From IMG/VR virus record IMGVR_UViG_2681813135_000005: a stretch of DNA of 17,497 bases, one strand, 5' to 3'. This DNA comes from a virus. Taxonomy: Duplodnaviria > Heunggongvirae > Uroviricota > Caudoviricetes. The notes beneath the pieces are model-generated. The model was not told the DNA's origin, made no database searches, and saw only the letters and a program-made list of their open reading frames with translations. The position numbers and the translations under genes are program-made. Numbering within the stretch: position 1 is the stretch's first letter; the number at the start of each line of letters is the position of its first letter. Positions 4,911 to 14,360 of the stretch are shown piece by piece.

Positions 4911-5581
4911 TGCTCCCCATATACAAAACCAATTTCAGCCAGTGCCTCGTCCATTTTTTCGATGAACTCCGGCACCATCTCGTCAAAACTCGCCATGTAC
5001 TTTTCATTCCGCTCAACCACGACGTAATGCAGGCCTTCACGCTTCATGCGCGGGTCATAGTTGGCAAAGTACCAGGCATCTTTTCGCGTCACCCACATGC
5101 TGTACTGCACCTGGGCCATGTAAGCCGATTTTATTGCCTCGAAACCACCGAGCCGGAATTTCATGAAATCCCGGGAGGTAAACGGGCATTTCAGTTCAAG
5201 GCCGTTGCCGTCACTGCATAAACCATCGGGAGAGCAGGCGGTGCGCATATTTTCGTCGCGATAGATGATCGGGGATTCAGTAATATTCACGCCGGAAGTG
5301 AATTCAAACAGGGTTCTGGCGTCGTTCTCGTACTGTTTTCCCCAGGCCAGCGCCTTAGCATTAACTTCCGGAGCCACACCGGTGCAAACCTCAGCCAGCA
5401 GGGTGTGGAAGTAGGACATTTTCATGTCAGGCCACTTCTTTCCTGAGCGGGGCTTTGCTATCACGTTGTGAACTTCTGAAGCGGTGATGACGCCGAGCCG
5501 TAATTTGTGCCATGCATCATCCCCCTGTTCGACAACTCTCACGTCGATCCCGGTACGCTGCAGGATAATGTCCGGTGTCAT
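4901..5581 (-). CDS. exo: Lambda exonuclease (Red-alpha)
   Basis: 226-aa [68 protein letters not shown]..., recognised as lambda Exo. Overlaps bet by ATGA. Confidence 0.95.
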
Positions 5582-7428: not shown

Positions 7429-7809
7429 TCAGTCAGCCCAACCTGATTTCGAGTTTATTTGGGTTTCTGACATTGTGTATTTCTTAATCGTGTCATCGTT
7501 AAAAAGAATAGTAAGTTCTTTTTTCGTACCGTTCGTTCCATTATGGAATAATCCATAGAATGGAATAAAAGTGGTGCCATTAACTTTTACTTTTGCAAAG
7601 GCGTACTTCCAGATCTCGTTTCCACTGTCAGTATATGAAACAGCATCAGGAGAACCAAAGTAAGATTTAACCTCATTCTTGGTTGTTTTACCTTCCTGAA
7701 GTTTAGACTGGACACTAATTTCAGTTTCATTTTTGAGTTGCTGGTTGCCTGAAGAAGCACACCCAGCCAATACAGATGCCATCATGGCAGCGATTAGGAT
7801 TTTTCTCAT
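7429..7809 (-). CDS. Phage-encoded lipoprotein (SmpA/OmlA/BamE-like motif) in the rexAB position
   Basis: 126-aa ORF with signal peptide and lipobox (MRKILIAAMMASVLAGC). Segment KNEVKSYFGSPDAVSYTDSGNEIWKY resembles the BamE/SmpA-OmlA fold motif. AT-rich. Lies between the repressor gene and OL with its own terminator. Confidence 0.75.
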   Translation of the reverse strand: MRKILIAAMMASVLAGCASSGNQQLKNETEISVQSKLQEGKTTKNEVKSYFGSPDAVSYTDSGNEIWKYAFAKVKVNGTTFIPFYGLFHNGTNGTKKELTILFNDDTIKKYTMSETQINSKSGWAD

Positions 7810-8038
7810 TTTATGTTTCCATTCATTATAATCAGAAACATCTTAACATAATGATTCGAAATAAAAACCGCTACGAGATAGGGGGACATTTTGCTGACAG
7901 TAGCAACAAATCTCAGCTAACAACGAGAATATTTACTGAAATATGCAAACAGATTTGGCGTTCTTATAGAGAATTTAGTGCAATATCTAATCCGAGTGGT
8001 ATAAACCTTAACCTTCGCTCCCTTAAGTCGTAGATAAA

Positions 8039-8728
8039 TTAACCATGCTTCCTGTACGTCTGCGGCATGCTTCCAATGACCTTACCGAATATGAACACCC
8101 GGTTCATCTCGTCTTTCTCGATCGGGTCCCACGGCGAGTAGCTCTTGTTATCAGAGATAACCAGCAGCTTATCCTTCATCATTTGAAGACGTTTTACATG
8201 GGCAGTGTCGTCGTACAGAAACGCATAGATGCCATCACCGTCGAAAGATTTAACAGTGATATCAACGAACAGCAGGTCACCTGGTTCGATCGTCCCTGAC
8301 ATGCTGTCACCTCGCACGTTAATGATGCGGATATTTTCCGCCTTCCTGCCATCGAACATGTGACGAGCATCGTCAAACGAGTACTCAACCGAGCGTAGAA
8401 CTTCTACAAACTCACGGTTGATTACACCTGGCCCGGCACTGACTTCTATATCAAGAACGTCAATTTTGAAGTATTTGGAATGGCTGACAGTTGATTGTAT
8501 TGGTTGCACTGTACTGTCTGACATATTTCCAACGCCAGAAGATAACCATTCTGCGCGCACACCCAAAGCGTTCGCGATCTCCACGATTTTAGTTGTTTGG
8601 TTAGCTTTCCCTGTTTCGATTTTCTGAATAGCAGCCTGGCTAACCCCGACCAAATCCCCAAGCGCCTTTTGTGTAAGGCCTCGCGCTAATCTGGCTTCTT
8701 TAAGTCTTTCTGAGAGTGTTGTTTTCAT
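8039..8728 (-). CDS. CI-type prophage repressor (N-terminal HTH, C-terminal LexA/S24-like autoproteolysis domain)
   Basis: 229-aa ORF. N-terminal HTH (LTQKALGDLVGVSQAAIQKIETGK); C-terminal S24-like region with NVRGDSMSGTIEPGDLLFVD and a downstream lysine (HVKRL). No SD before the ATG, consistent with a leaderless pRM-type transcript. Not lambda cI. Confidence 0.85.
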   Translation of the reverse strand: MKTTLSERLKEARLARGLTQKALGDLVGVSQAAIQKIETGKANQTTKIVEIANALGVRAEWLSSGVGNMSDSTVQPIQSTVSHSKYFKIDVLDIEVSAGPGVINREFVEVLRSVEYSFDDARHMFDGRKAENIRIINVRGDSMSGTIEPGDLLFVDITVKSFDGDGIYAFLYDDTAHVKRLQMMKDKLLVISDNKSYSPWDPIEKDEMNRVFIFGKVIGSMPQTYRKHG

Positions 8729-8832
8729 AGATCAAATGTACAACCAAGGTTTTATTTCATCAAACGAAAATGGTTGTTGACTAAAAACAACCATAGTTTT
8801 AATCTTTATTCGGATTAACCACGGAGGTTGTT
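8729..8832. promoter_or_regulatory. Divergent pRM/pR-like promoter region with OR-like operators
   Basis: Between divergent repressor and cro-like genes. Sites AAAATGGTTGTTGAC and AACAACCATAGTTTT (reverse complement AAAACTATGGTTGTT, one mismatch from the OL site AAAACTATAGTTGTT). Plus-strand TTGACT, 17-nt spacer, TTAATC, then GGAGG and the ATG at 8833. Confidence 0.55.
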
Positions 8833-10688: not shown

Positions 10689-11386
10689 AAAACATCGCCG
10701 CACAGATGGTTAACTTTGACCGTGAGCAGATGCGCCGGATCGCCAACAACATGCCGGAACAGTACGACGAAAAGCCGCAGGTACAACAGGTAGCGCAGAT
10801 CATCAATGGTGTGTTCAGCCAGTTACTGGCAACTTTCCCGGCGAGCCTGGCTAACCGGGACCAGAACGAACTGAACGAAATCCGCCGCCAGTGGGTTCTG
10901 GCTTTCCGGGAAAACGGGATCACCACGATGGAACAGGTTAACGCAGGAATGCGCGTAGCCCGTCGGCAGAATCGACCATTCCTGCCATCACCCGGGCAGT
11001 TTGTTGCCTGGTGCCGGGAAGAAGCATCCGTTACCGCCGGGCTGCCAAACGCCAGCGAGCTGGTTGATATGGTTTACGAGTATTGCCGGAAACGTGGCCT
11101 GTATCCAGATGCAGAGTCTTATCCGTGGAAATCAAACGCGCACTACTGGCTGGTTACCAACCTGTATCAGAACATGCGGGCCAATGCGCTGACTGATGCG
11201 GAATTACGGCGCAAGGCTGCCGATGAACTGGCCTGTATGACAGCGCGAATTAACCGTGGTGAGGCGATACCTGAACCAGTAAAACAACTTCCTGTCATGG
11301 GCGGGAGACCGCTTAATCGTGTTCAGGCTCTGGCGAAGATCGCAGAAATCAAAGCGAAGTTTGGGCTGAAAGGAGCAAGTGTATGA
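10685..11386 (+). CDS. P: Replication protein P (DnaB helicase loader)
   Basis: 233-aa ORF MKNIAAQMVNFDREQMRRIANNMPEQYDEKPQVQQVAQIINGVFSQLLATFPASLANRDQNE..., recognised as lambda P. ATGA overlap with O. Confidence 0.95.
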   Translation: MKNIAAQMVNFDREQMRRIANNMPEQYDEKPQVQQVAQIINGVFSQLLATFPASLANRDQNELNEIRRQWVLAFRENGITTMEQVNAGMRVARRQNRPFLPSPGQFVAWCREEASVTAGLPNASELVDMVYEYCRKRGLYPDAESYPWKSNAHYWLVTNLYQNMRANALTDAELRRKAADELACMTARINRGEAIPEPVKQLPVMGGRPLNRVQALAKIAEIKAKFGLKGASV

Positions 11387-11670
11387 CGGGCAAAGAGGCA
11401 ATTATTCATTACCTGGGGACTCATAAGAACTTCTGTGCGCAGGACGTTGCCGCGGTAACAGGCGCAACCGTAACCAGCATAAATCAGGCTGCGGCTAAAA
11501 TGGCGCGGTCAGGAATCCTGGTCGTTGATGGTAAGGTCTGGCGAACGGTGTATTACCGGTTCGCTACCAGAGAAGAACGGGAAGGAAAGGTGAGCACGAA
11601 TCTGATTTTTAAGGAGTGTCGTCAAAGTGCCGCGATGAAGCGGGTGTTGGCTTTATATGGAAGAGAGTAG
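11383..11670 (+). CDS. ren: Ren protein
   Basis: 95-aa ORF MTGKEAIIHYLGTHKNFCAQDVAAVTGATVTSINQAAAKMARSGILVVDGKVWRTVYYRFATREEREGK..., recognised as lambda-type Ren. ATGA overlap with P. Confidence 0.85.
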   Translation: MTGKEAIIHYLGTHKNFCAQDVAAVTGATVTSINQAAAKMARSGILVVDGKVWRTVYYRFATREEREGKVSTNLIFKECRQSAAMKRVLALYGRE

Positions 11671-11734
11671 GTATGAGCAATTATTGTTACTAATTTTAGT
11701 TTTACGACATTCGTGATAACTAAATAATTGATGT

Positions 11735-11989
11735 GTGGAACTGAATTATAAAGGGGATGATGTTTTGGGAAATAAAGAAAATATCGATTGTAAGCACACA
11801 AGAAGCTCATGCTATAAAAACAAGCAGATGAAAGATGTTATTTATATTACATTGCCTAAACTCACTGAAGAAGAAGTAGAAATTTTTAAGGGACCAATGC
11901 ATAAAGCATTGCTTGCAGGGATAAATGTTACAAAAAAGGCAGTTTCTGATGCCCTGCTAAACAAAGGGATAAAAGTTGAATTTAAATAG
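11735..11989 (+). CDS. Hypothetical small protein in the AT-rich cargo insertion (start uncertain)
   Basis: 84-aa ORF from a GTG at 11735, or 53 aa from the ATG at 11828 (MKDVIYITLPKLTEEEVEIFKG...). No clear SD for either. A 24-codon ORF with strong SD AAGGGGA starts at 11757 in another frame. Confidence 0.3.
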   Translation: MELNYKGDDVLGNKENIDCKHTRSSCYKNKQMKDVIYITLPKLTEEEVEIFKGPMHKALLAGINVTKKAVSDALLNKGIKVEFK

Positions 11990-12005
11990 AGTAATTCAGT
12001 GGCAA

Positions 12006-12033
12006 CAATAGCACTCATTTGTGAGTGCTATTG
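12006..12033. terminator. Hairpin between convergent cargo ORFs (putative bidirectional terminator)
   Basis: Perfect 12-bp inverted repeat CAATAGCACTCA-TTTG-TGAGTGCTATTG between the stop of the small plus-strand ORF (11989) and the stop of the 472-aa minus-strand ORF (12041). Followed on the plus strand by AAATTTATT. Confidence 0.5.
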
Positions 12034-12040
12034 AAATTTA

Positions 12041-13459
12041 TTAGAAAATAATGTTTGCTATATCCGAGATAGCATTTAAAGAACCTCTGTGGTCACTTCC
12101 TGTTTTAGGTAAAATATAGGAATATCGAGGGTCTTCATTATATGTTAACTTCCAGTGTTTTCCATCGCTTGACGCACTGAAACCTAAGTCCTTTAAATTT
12201 CTTTGTGTTGCGCTATCCATGCTTCTGTAACCTGTTAAAGTCCTTTTAAGTAATTGGCGGCGACTCTCGGTTTCTTTATTGTATTCATTATTGGCAATTA
12301 GGGATGATAAGATATGGTAGCTTCTACCAAATTCATTTTTATTTTTTATGGCAGTTTTTAGTGCGTCAATAATTATATTTTTGATTTCTCCATCAAAAAA
12401 ATCAGTCTCTTCACCAGCATTAAGCACAATGCTTCCTTGGGCTGAAGCTTGTGATTGAAGAGTGCGTACTCTGTGCTCTAAAGAGGAGATCTTATGCTTA
12501 AGATCTTCTATTTGGTCATCTTTCGCAACATTATCGGCTTCGTAAAGCGCCATCAGTTCGCGTGTGTATTCTCCTCTTTCTTTGAGTGAGTTAATAGAGT
12601 CTTTCGTTTTTCTGGTTTGTATCTCACTCCATCCACTATCTGAGACAGGAGCCATTGTAGTCGTAGCTCTTACAACATCATCAAATAACTCATCTTCAAA
12701 TTCTTTTGCGGTTTTCTCACCACGGCGATAAAAACTGATATTTTGACCCCGTGGCCAATAGATACCAACAGCACCAGCATAGGCATTTTTAGCATTTGTC
12801 TCATTTTTTAGCTTAATAGAAAATAGTCTATTGCTAGGCTCAATTAATACATGTGCTAATCCGCATACCTTTCTTGCAAGGCGTTCTGGGATGATATTGT
12901 GAGCATGTTCATTAAAAAAATACTTGGAGCTAACGTATATTATTGGTAGTCTGTTGTCAGTTTCACCATTTATAACTTTAGCTGCTATATTTAAATGTTC
13001 ATCAGTATCATCTAAGGAATGAGGTTCGACTGACACCTTGAAAATATCATCAAGACCACCAGAAAATTTATCAATCAATCTCATAACAACTAATGGTTTC
13101 TTAGGTTGCGGGGCTAGATAAGCTGCATCTTGGCTTACAACGCTAGATTCCACCTGAATCCACATGGTATCAGTTTTGAGATTTTTATTAATTGAAATAT
13201 CTGTTACCCATTTGTGTGGCTCAGATATTTTCGAATACCTAAAACAGCCTAAACTAGTATCTTTGTTTTTATAAGTTATTATATCAATTCTTTCATTTTT
13301 AGACTCTATGAAGTACTCCTCGCTTTTATAATCACATACTAATTGTGCTGGAATAAAAGTTGTATGTGGTGAGTCGTTTACCCAAGAAAAACATTCATTA
13401 AAGATCTCAGCTAGAGATGTGGAGTTTGAAACATAAAAACCAGTTGAGAAATATTTCAT
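12041..13459 (-). CDS. Large hypothetical protein (472 aa) of unrecognised family: cargo gene at the ren/ninB junction, candidate phage-defence or abortive-infection factor
   Basis: Uninterrupted 472-codon ORF with SD AAGGAA 5 nt before the ATG at 13459. Markedly AT-rich compared with flanking ren and ninB-like genes and transcribed against them. Central predicted coiled-coil (DDQIEDLKHKISSLEHRVRTLQSQASAQ) between an N-terminal region of about 290 aa and a C-terminal region of about 130 aa. No family recognised by eye. Confidence 0.8.
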   Translation of the reverse strand: MKYFSTGFYVSNSTSLAEIFNECFSWVNDSPHTTFIPAQLVCDYKSEEYFIESKNERIDIITYKNKDTSLGCFRYSKISEPHKWVTDISINKNLKTDTMWIQVESSVVSQDAAYLAPQPKKPLVVMRLIDKFSGGLDDIFKVSVEPHSLDDTDEHLNIAAKVINGETDNRLPIIYVSSKYFFNEHAHNIIPERLARKVCGLAHVLIEPSNRLFSIKLKNETNAKNAYAGAVGIYWPRGQNISFYRRGEKTAKEFEDELFDDVVRATTTMAPVSDSGWSEIQTRKTKDSINSLKERGEYTRELMALYEADNVAKDDQIEDLKHKISSLEHRVRTLQSQASAQGSIVLNAGEETDFFDGEIKNIIIDALKTAIKNKNEFGRSYHILSSLIANNEYNKETESRRQLLKRTLTGYRSMDSATQRNLKDLGFSASSDGKHWKLTYNEDPRYSYILPKTGSDHRGSLNAISDIANIIF

Positions 13460-13476
13460 GAAATTTCCTTATTAAA

Positions 13477-13494
13477 AATGAGATTAATCTCATT
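13477..13494 (-). promoter_or_regulatory. 18-bp perfect palindrome in the 5' region of the 472-aa gene (operator or attenuator-like hairpin)
   Basis: AATGAGATTAATCTCATT is its own reverse complement. It lies 18-35 nt upstream of the start codon; on the minus strand it is followed by TTTTT and then the SD. Confidence 0.45.
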
Positions 13495-13734
13495 GGCTAT
13501 GATAATTGTTACCCTCCTTTGGATCTAGTGTTCATTTGACATAAGAACCTATTGATTCATCATAATCAACTCGCCATAATCATGTCATCGGAGCCTGAAC
13601 AACTCCGGTGACTTCTGCGCTTTGAGGGGACTCAAAGTGCAAACGACAATCAGAACACCTTTCAACCAGTCACAGATGCAGAAATGCACCTGCGATATCT
13701 TGCATCCAACGTTTGACCTCTGCGGAGGTGAAGC

Positions 13735-14190
13735 GTGAACCTCCCACAAGATGGTATCAAATTGCATCGCGGTAACTTCACCGCTATCGGTCGGCAGATC
13801 CAGCCTTATCTGGAGGACGGCAAATGCTTTCGCATGGTGCTTAAACCGTGGCGCGAGAGACGCAGTCTTTCCCAGAATGCACTCAGCCACATGTGGTACA
13901 GCGAAATCAGTGAATACCTCATCAGCAAGGGTAAAACGTTCGCCACTCCAGCTTGGGTAAAAGATGCTCTCAAACACACATATCTCGGTTATGAAACCAA
14001 AGACCTGGTTGATGTCGTAACCGGTGATATCACCACTATCCAGTCGTTACGCCATACCTCCGATCTTGATACCGGAGAGATGTATGTCTTCCTGTGTAAG
14101 GTTGAAGCCTGGGCGGTGAATATTGGCTGCCACCTGACTATTCCGCAGAGCTGCGAGTTCCAGCTGCTCCGCGACAAGCAGGAGGCGTAA
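13735..14190 (+). CDS. ybcN: NinB/YbcN-like protein (nin-region recombination/DNA-binding family)
   Basis: 151-aa ORF from GTG at 13735 with SD GGAGG. Sequence recalled as DLP12 YbcN-like; [17 protein letters not shown] parallels lambda NinB RSLDQNRKLW. Confidence 0.7.
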
Positions 14191-14360
14191 TGGCTACACC
14201 GCTTATTCGTGTCATGAACGGACACATCTACAGAGTACCAGATCGTCGTAAGCGTAAACCGGAGCTGAAGCCTTCCGAAATACCAACACTGCTCGGATAT
14301 ACCGCCAGCCTGGTTGATAAAAAATGGTTGCGACTGGCAGCAAGGAGGAATCATGGCTGA
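14190..14360 (+). CDS. ninE: NinE-like small protein (56 aa)
   Basis: [64 protein letters not shown] overlap with the upstream gene, SD GGAGG, and ATGGCTGA overlap with the downstream gene. Below the ORF-track cut-off. Confidence 0.7.
   Translation: MATPLIRVMNGHIYRVPDRRKRKPELKPSEIPTLLGYTASLVDKKWLRLAARRNHG

Follow-up and report, generated by a model that had tools for sequence, protein, structure and literature searches.

The gene for an uncharacterised 472-aa protein in a lambdoid prophage of Escherichia coli is preceded by an 18-bp perfect palindrome, AATGAGATTAATCTCATT, which contains an exact match to the RcsB box, and this site probably adds one more case to a familiar type, the repressive RcsB box. 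To the reading that the dyad works as an operator of the RcsB-box type, bound by RcsB or an RcsB-like protein and repressing by roadblock, we give about an even chance. The original prediction had named an operator for a dimeric regulator as one of two possible roles of the palindrome, and this role is supported here with RcsB as the candidate, as the box is exact, stands at a fixed distance in nine diverged leaders and changes at its degenerate positions. The start site of transcription, the binding of RcsB and the sign of the regulation are what we infer from sequence comparison. The coordinates of all features are given in Table 1.

Table 1. Features of the cassette that carries the 472-aa gene, in positions of the window.
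Feature	Position	Strand	Remarks
Palindrome AATGAGATTAATCTCATT	13477..13494	.	7-bp arms AATGAGA / TCTCATT, variable 4-bp centre
14-bp core TGAGATTAATCTCA	13479..13492	.	Exact match to RcsB box, AGA in both half-sites; candidate RcsB operator
-10-like hexamer TATCAT	13499..13504	-	17 nt after -35-like hexamer, 4 nt before palindrome
-35-like hexamer TAGATC	13522..13527	-	Inside conserved motif CACTAGATC (13530-13522)
Shine-Dalgarno AAGGAA	13465..13470	-	5 nt before ATG; AAGG kept in relatives
Cassette-specific AT-rich DNA upstream of dyad	13495..13549	.	Holds promoter-like hexamers; lambdoid homology resumes at about 13550
472-aa cargo gene	12041..13459	-	WP_042028685.1, annotated hypothetical protein; candidate anti-phage defence gene
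12-bp-stem hairpin CAATAGCACTCA-TTTG-TGAGTGCTATTG	12006..12033	.	Just beyond stop codon of 472-aa gene

The window, by which we mean the whole analysed stretch of 17,497 nucleotides, is an E. coli lambdoid prophage, and a query of 3,001 bp taken from it (11300-14300) is 100% identical to strain EFF60. The genes are arranged in the order CI-like repressor (8039-8728), cro, O, P and ren (11383-11670), followed on the other strand by the 472-aa gene, and beyond it ybcN/ninB (13735-14190), ninE, rusA and Q. The island of the 472-aa gene has a GC content of 0.30-0.40 compared with 0.50-0.58 in the flanks. Only 23 of 5,426 complete E. coli genomes have a match over 80% or more of the 3-kb cassette query; in 3,736 genomes just parts of it are matched. 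In other lambdoid prophages the interval between ren and ybcN (about 11671-13549 in the window) carries other cargo, either two minus-strand hypothetical genes or emrE together with a ybcK recombinase (L196, L197), and by these gene contents it is a cargo hotspot of lambdoid prophages. The homology to the backbone resumes only at about 13550, and therefore the palindrome is part of the cargo cassette. All 75 relatives of the 472-aa protein that were found are uncharacterised. They are encoded in lambdoid P-ninB intervals, in the gpA-portal interval of P2-like elements, beside P4-like primases, in an ICE and on small Klebsiella plasmids, and the neighbourhoods of these relatives show that the cassette moves as a single gene; no homologue was found in isolated phage genomes. 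The protein has no Pfam family and shows a weak partial match (E = 1e-9, residues 83-334) to the PADLOC candidate HEC-07, which is described as consisting of an AdoMetDC-like N-terminal domain, a thioredoxin-like domain and a C-terminal RelE-like RNase domain (bioRxiv 10.1101/2024.01.29.577857). Sequence matches in the PDB were restricted to coiled coils and a Foldseek search of the PDB gave nothing significant, while the fold model and the searches together point to thioredoxin-like and SRPBCC-like folds and a coiled coil. A literature search by the accession of the protein returned no paper. A role in phage defence is plausible for this candidate. The strong hairpin just beyond the stop codon lies between the 472-aa gene and a convergent 84-aa ORF (11735-11989, plus strand) and is probably a bidirectional terminator that is common to both and ends the cassette. 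The 84-aa ORF is AT-rich and without a Pfam or PADLOC match; in one RefSeq genome it is labelled “phospholipase D-like domain-containing protein” and in others hypothetical.

The palindrome is identical to its own reverse complement and, just as originally predicted, lies 18-35 nt upstream of the ATG (13459-13457) of the minus-strand gene. Next to it on the coding strand comes TTT, which together with the last two bases of the stem gives the described run of five T, and then AAT and the Shine-Dalgarno sequence AAGGAA (13470-13465). It is the longest perfect palindrome of the window, with halves of 7 bp in the runner-up. Nevertheless, palindromes with halves of at least 9 bp arose in 41 of 500 dinucleotide-preserving shuffles of the window, and for the window as a whole an 18-bp palindrome by itself is only modestly unlikely. 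Around the palindrome the DNA is AT-rich (local GC 0.30-0.36), and calculated from this local composition about 1e-3 such palindromes are expected in a leader of ~125 nt. It had also been proposed to look for further copies of the half-site; the search gave five copies of the 7-mer in the window against about three expected, which is not significant, and a second copy of the 18-mer with up to three mismatches is absent from the whole window. A shorter palindrome of 12 bp, ATTTCATGAAAT (13453-13464), lies across the ATG of this gene. The identical 12-mer occurs again at 5158-5169 and, beyond the window, where the Edwardsiella homologue (L014) starts; probably it is a by-product of the spacer and the Met-Lys codons.

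That the 18-bp palindrome is more than a product of chance follows from comparative evidence, because its arms are conserved in diverged leaders. For this comparison, the upstream regions of all available relatives of the 472-aa gene were used. Counterparts of the dyad are present at the same place in the leaders of proteins that are 71-77% identical, namely AATGAGA-AAAC-TCTCATT in L005, AATGGGA-ATAA-TCTCATT in L022, AATGAGG-ATAG-TCTCATT in L137, AATGAGA-ATAG-TCTTATT in L017, AATGAGA-ATAT-TCTTATA in L020, TATAGGA-AACA-TCTTATT in L016, and AATGAGA-AAAA-TCTAATT in L136. The four central bases are TTAA in the window and AAAC, ATAA, ATAG, ATAT, AACA, AAAA or TTTT in the relatives. By this comparison the conserved unit is a 7-4-7 dyad with a free centre, and the perfection over 18 bp is incidental. 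In the leader alignment (A2) the two arms have mean pairwise identities of 0.77 and 0.73, compared with 0.32-0.41 in the neighbouring spacers, and they are the best conserved non-coding blocks of the diverged leaders.

Two further blocks upstream of the dyad are conserved almost as well, a -35-like block (C)ACTAGAT(C/T) with an identity of 0.70 and a -10-like block TAT(C/T)AT or TACCAT with 0.67. The 17-nt spacer between them (0.41) and the 4-5 nt from the -10-like block to the dyad (0.32) have drifted without indels, and the -10-like hexamer occurs as TATCAT, TATTAT or TACCAT at constant spacing in eight of eleven aligned leaders. Because the hexamers are conserved at a constant 17-nt spacing while the spacers have diverged, the start of transcription is predicted at about 13491-13494, on the first bases of the dyad. 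The -35-like hexamer TAGATC agrees with TTGACA in three of six positions only and is hence absent from the list of a consensus promoter scan. The earlier description of the palindrome as sitting between the promoter region and the ribosome-binding site is thus roughly right, but the dyad overlaps the predicted +1 rather than following it at some distance. In L016, a deletion of 8 nt sets the -10-like element directly against the stem. The best hit of the scan, ATGACA-18-TATGAT (13588-13559), was rejected as the promoter of the gene; it lies in the backbone shared with cassette-less prophages, is not conserved with the gene, and can be at most a secondary source of transcripts. Just outside the cassette junction, the backbone also contains an inverted repeat with 6-bp arms, TTGATT-ATGATG-AATCAA (13552-13569; minus strand TTGATTATGATGAATCAA), which is partly conserved in prophages with other cargo and has promoter-like hexamers on both strands. 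An upstream ORF starting from an AUG inside the left arm was likewise discarded, its length and frame differing among the leaders of the relatives. The closest relative, in a prophage of Edwardsiella tarda (L014) and with a protein that is 81% identical, keeps the -35-like and -10-like blocks (CACTAGAAC ... TATTAT). However, 35 nt before the start codon it has AATGTCGGTAATGCGGAT instead of the dyad, which forms neither a box nor a stable hairpin, and the element is therefore dispensable for the gene.

The consensus of the RcsB box, TN(G/A)GAN4TC(T/C)NA, was derived from crystal structures of the rprA and flhDC P1 sites and from EMSA mutagenesis (PMC7913699). The 14-bp core TGAGATTAATCTCA shares all specified bases (TGAGA...TCT.A) with the crystallised rprA site TGAGACGAATCTGA. 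We scanned 200 nt upstream of every homologue for the exact box and 80 nt with one mismatch allowed. The window type, L005, L022, L017, L020, L016, L136 and L018 all have an exact box 31-34 nt upstream of the start codon. Across the nine leader variants with a box, the proteins of which are 68-100% identical, 71 of 72 positions specified by the consensus conform, the exception being L137, where one mismatch (TGAGG) is combined with an intact stem; a half-site change of the TGAGG type was reported to diminish the binding of RcsB (PMC7913699). T3, G6, T12, C13 and A16 are invariant in all nine variants, and the variation falls on the N (G/A; C/T/A), R (A/G) and Y (T/C) positions. Counted as events, eight substitutions are allowed by the box and one is not, corresponding to a binomial p of about 4e-4 if 30% are assumed to be allowed by chance. 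The box of L016, TAGGAAACATCTTA, is identical at 13 of 14 positions to the crystallised flhDC site TAGGAAAAATCTTA. Furthermore, L141 has a near-canonical box of the RcsAB type, TAAGAATAATCCTA, at -61. The Rcs system is described as belonging to the Enterobacteriaceae (PMC7913699, PMC5758874). In line with this literature, the hosts of the box-bearing elements, which are Enterobacterales, can be taken to encode RcsB; those that could be named are Siccibacter, Pantoea and Scandinavium, besides E. coli for the window itself. No RcsB box was found within 200 nt upstream of the gene in 20 non-enterobacterial homologues. It is also absent from the close enterobacterial relatives L014, L003, L019 and L140 and from the 49% group, and control by RcsB is therefore dispensable.

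A single match to the box carries little weight. The consensus holds about 14 bits, which means roughly one chance match per 16 kb and 0.94 expected matches per window, and RcsB was reached after other regulators had been tried, which carries a look-elsewhere cost. The window contains three exact boxes against these 0.94, and the remaining two bracket the start of the second minus-strand cargo gene. In these AT-rich loci exact boxes have a background rate of 1.2e-4 per position. In the Scandinavium prophage (L018), the leader of which is otherwise unalignable, an exact box (TAAGATTTTTCCCA) nevertheless lies within 2 nt of the same position, with a chance probability of about 5e-4. It is very unlikely that the palindrome is a chance or relic product of AT-rich DNA without a function of its own and that it owes its conservation to shared leader ancestry. 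Such a product would agree with the equally long palindromes in 41 of 500 window shuffles, with an RcsB consensus expected about once per window and with the several relatives that do without the element, but not with arms that are kept at 0.73-0.77 next to spacers at 0.32-0.41 in the same alignment, nor with the box of L018.

The two additional boxes of the window, TAGGATTTTTCTCA and TCAGAAACATCTTA (7795-7808 and 7832-7845), are located at the start of a gene for a 126-aa BamE-like lipoprotein (7429-7809, minus strand) downstream of cI. One of them overlaps the ATG and the other lies 1 nt upstream of a perfect TATAAT (7830-7825, minus strand). Among the 69 E. coli copies identity is at least 99%, too high to reveal whether the sites are conserved. 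If they were true sites, several cargo genes of one prophage would be wired into the Rcs regulon.

An alternative that has to be weighed is that the element acts as RNA, in the form of a stem-loop of 7 bp with which the mRNA would begin and which would protect it from 5′-end-dependent decay (RppH, RNase E) or tune translation, the DNA palindrome being no more than a template. The predicted start on the first bases of the stem fits this well. The stem is part of both the MFE and the centroid fold and is the only consensus structure given by RNAalifold, with 92% of cells paired, two pairs changed on both sides in A2 and a covariation score that 20 of 500 shuffles reached. Moreover, 57 of 63 stem pairs are kept over the nine variants, the loop is free in sequence and constant in length, and the transitions in the arms are mostly compatible with G.U pairing on the sense strand, and pair 4-15 is G-C, then G.U, then A-U across the relatives. 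However, the stem has little stability (-5.0 kcal/mol for the window sequence, between -5.4 and -2.2 for the relatives), and no compensatory change is seen in its invariant pairs 3-16, 6-13 and 7-12. Folding of the complete leader does not surpass that of shuffled sequences (z = +0.66), and in L016 the 8-nt deletion could leave the stem incompletely transcribed. In Rfam no family was matched, the best hit having E = 3.5 and 18.7 bits against a gathering score of 41.2. The sequences that discriminate favour the DNA reading two to one, because L136 (TGAGAAAAATCTAA) and L018 keep eight of eight box positions while the stem is lost (0 kcal/mol in the former, only four of seven pairs with two A.C mismatches in the latter), and L137 does the reverse by keeping the pairing and weakening the box. 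The RcsB-box reading also explains the invariance of T3, G6, T12, C13 and A16. Yet the degenerate positions of the box pair with each other in the hairpin as well, and most of the substitutions, being G.U-compatible transitions, fit an RNA equally. We regard a function as RNA as unlikely, though as a rival to be taken seriously; operator and RNA hairpin are not mutually exclusive.

The second role named in the original prediction, an attenuator hairpin keeping a potentially toxic gene silent, is not borne out. As an intrinsic attenuator, the hairpin and the U-run would end most transcripts before the ribosome-binding site and thereby keep a toxic gene low, and the arrangement of a stem followed by UUU (five U including the end of the stem) between promoter and Shine-Dalgarno sequence resembles this at first sight; likewise, the same motif with longer T-runs forms terminator-like dyads in unrelated viral contigs. 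However, the 7-bp stem has only two G-C pairs at its -5.0 kcal/mol and was passed over by the terminator scan. Nor has the T-run been kept: it reads TTATCAAT in the 99%-identical E. coli copy (L034), where the U-run is broken (UUAUCAAU), TATAATT in L017 and ATAATAA in L020, and it is missing in the P4-like relatives. A start at the stem would leave no upstream RNA for anti-terminator alternatives, and in two relatives the box is retained where the hairpin is lost. Taken together, attenuation is extremely improbable. The leaders of the Pseudomonas-type homologues (L042-L046, L074-L076, L106) have a different inverted repeat (TTCC/CTCC ... GGAG/GGAA) some 10-30 nt ahead of the start codon. It would pair the Shine-Dalgarno sequence and is 82% paired, a value reached by 86 of 500 shuffles; in L074 its arms have 9 bp, CATGATCCC...GGGATCATG, with the start codon included.

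A dyad of this kind could also be the operator of a dimeric protein other than RcsB, i.e., of another regulator of the NarL/FixJ type, of an unknown host factor, or of the 472-aa protein acting as an autorepressor. The symmetry, the constant 4-bp spacing, the invariant T-GA/TC-A and the overlap with the predicted +1 would suit any such protein, and for a single-gene cassette autoregulation would have the appeal of making it self-contained. Nevertheless, the fold model and the searches revealed no DNA-binding domain and no helix-turn-helix match in the 472-aa protein, and the variable positions of the dyad coincide with those that RcsB specifically leaves free. Nor did other genes in viral contigs have the motif upstream of them; a scan of these contigs with AATGAGANNNNTCTCATTTT gave 53 stretches comprising the E. 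coli cassette itself and unrelated chance or terminator-like dyads. A prophage CI/Cro operator was rejected as well, since the half-sites of the immunity region, ACAACCA/TGGTTGT, are unrelated to the dyad and the 18-mer has no second copy. Three copies of these half-sites are located between cI and cro (8741-8797) and presumably represent the OR operators of the repressor of this prophage. Fur, CRP, FNR, LexA, TrpR, NarL and others do not fit in spacing or half-site. An operator for another dimeric protein is quite unlikely.

Under the RcsB-box reading, an RcsB dimer or an RcsB-containing heterodimer of the Rcs envelope-stress phosphorelay of the host would bind TGAGA-N4-TCTCA. The site overlaps the predicted start (+1 to about +14) of the weak sigma-70 promoter of the cassette, TAGATC-17-TATCAT, so that bound RcsB would hinder the formation of the open complex or promoter escape and would also block readthrough from upstream. 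The candidate defence gene would accordingly be turned down, and most strongly upon Rcs activation. Roadblock repression is associated with RcsB boxes that lie in 5′-UTRs, as in flhDC, or beyond the start, and in seven of ten RcsB-repressed genes of Salmonella the motif lies downstream of the start site or of the ATG (PMC7913699). An activating geometry, with the box centred near -41.5 or at -53 to -33 as in rprA, was rejected, as the start would then fall ~15 nt inside the conserved ORF. The further suggestion that the gene is silent until triggered is not implied by such a site, since a roadblock by RcsB would lower expression even further once the envelope-stress relay is on. Why a defence gene should be repressed under envelope stress is not obvious as a design. 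If true, intracellular immunity would go down while Rcs builds up protection at the surface, with capsule up and flagella down. For Serratia, an inverse coupling of Rcs and CRISPR-Cas has reportedly been found.

Most defence genes carried as cargo by prophages and satellites are assumed to be constitutive. What makes the site interesting is where it lies, within a portable module of promoter and operator that belongs to an uncharacterised candidate defence gene. Together with the ribosome-binding site, promoter and operator would form one compact unit that travels with the gene among lambdoid, P2-like and P4-like elements of Enterobacterales. It is possible, if somewhat less than probable, that the whole represents a mobile single-gene candidate defence cassette with a portable RcsB operator, which plugs into the envelope-stress relay of any enterobacterial host, be it from a prophage, a satellite or an ICE. 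A conserved operator for a host regulator within a mobile promoter-leader module would, if true, mean a defence gene wired to a stress pathway of the host, and a prophage target would be added to the Rcs regulon. Should the element work as RNA instead, it is a leader hairpin of an ordinary sort. In either case, promoter, dyad and ribosome-binding site provide a defined handle for expressing and studying this uncharacterised 472-aa family of phage-defence hotspots.

Several known systems are comparable with the element. Operators of the lac O1 type are dyads over +1 to about +20 that are themselves transcribed; the dyad of the window is alike in overlapping +1, but sequence and regulator family are unrelated. 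Bacterial mRNAs are stabilised by 5′-terminal hairpins of the ompA type. The likeness consists in a short hairpin at or within a few nucleotides of the predicted 5′ end, with a single-stranded A/U-rich stretch and then the Shine-Dalgarno sequence behind it; however, the stem of the window is far less stable, no longer forms in two relatives whose DNA consensus is intact and has no covariation at the invariant pairs. The RcsAB box of capsule and EPS promoters has the consensus TaAGaatatTCcta (PMC4325325), to which the boxes of L141 (13 of 14 positions) and L020 (TGAGAATATTCTTA, 12 of 14) come close. Boxes of this type are usually found well upstream, activating together with RcsA, and the box of L141 is placed unlike that of the window type. 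The rprA box is identical to the site of the window at every specified base, but it lies at -53 to -33 and activates, whereas activation is implausible for the site of the window. The RcsB/RcsAB box in the 5′-UTR of flhDC of E. coli and Salmonella follows the same 5-4-5 pseudo-palindromic consensus as the site described here; it is placed within the transcribed leader, shortly behind the promoter, and acts negatively on transcription (PMC7913699, PMC5829831). In contrast to flhDC with its long 5′-UTR, the site of the window is fully symmetric, each half containing AGA, and extends over the predicted +1 of a leader of ~35 nt. Finally, flhDC is a core chromosomal operon, whereas the site of the window, a candidate operator, belongs to a mobile cargo gene of a prophage.
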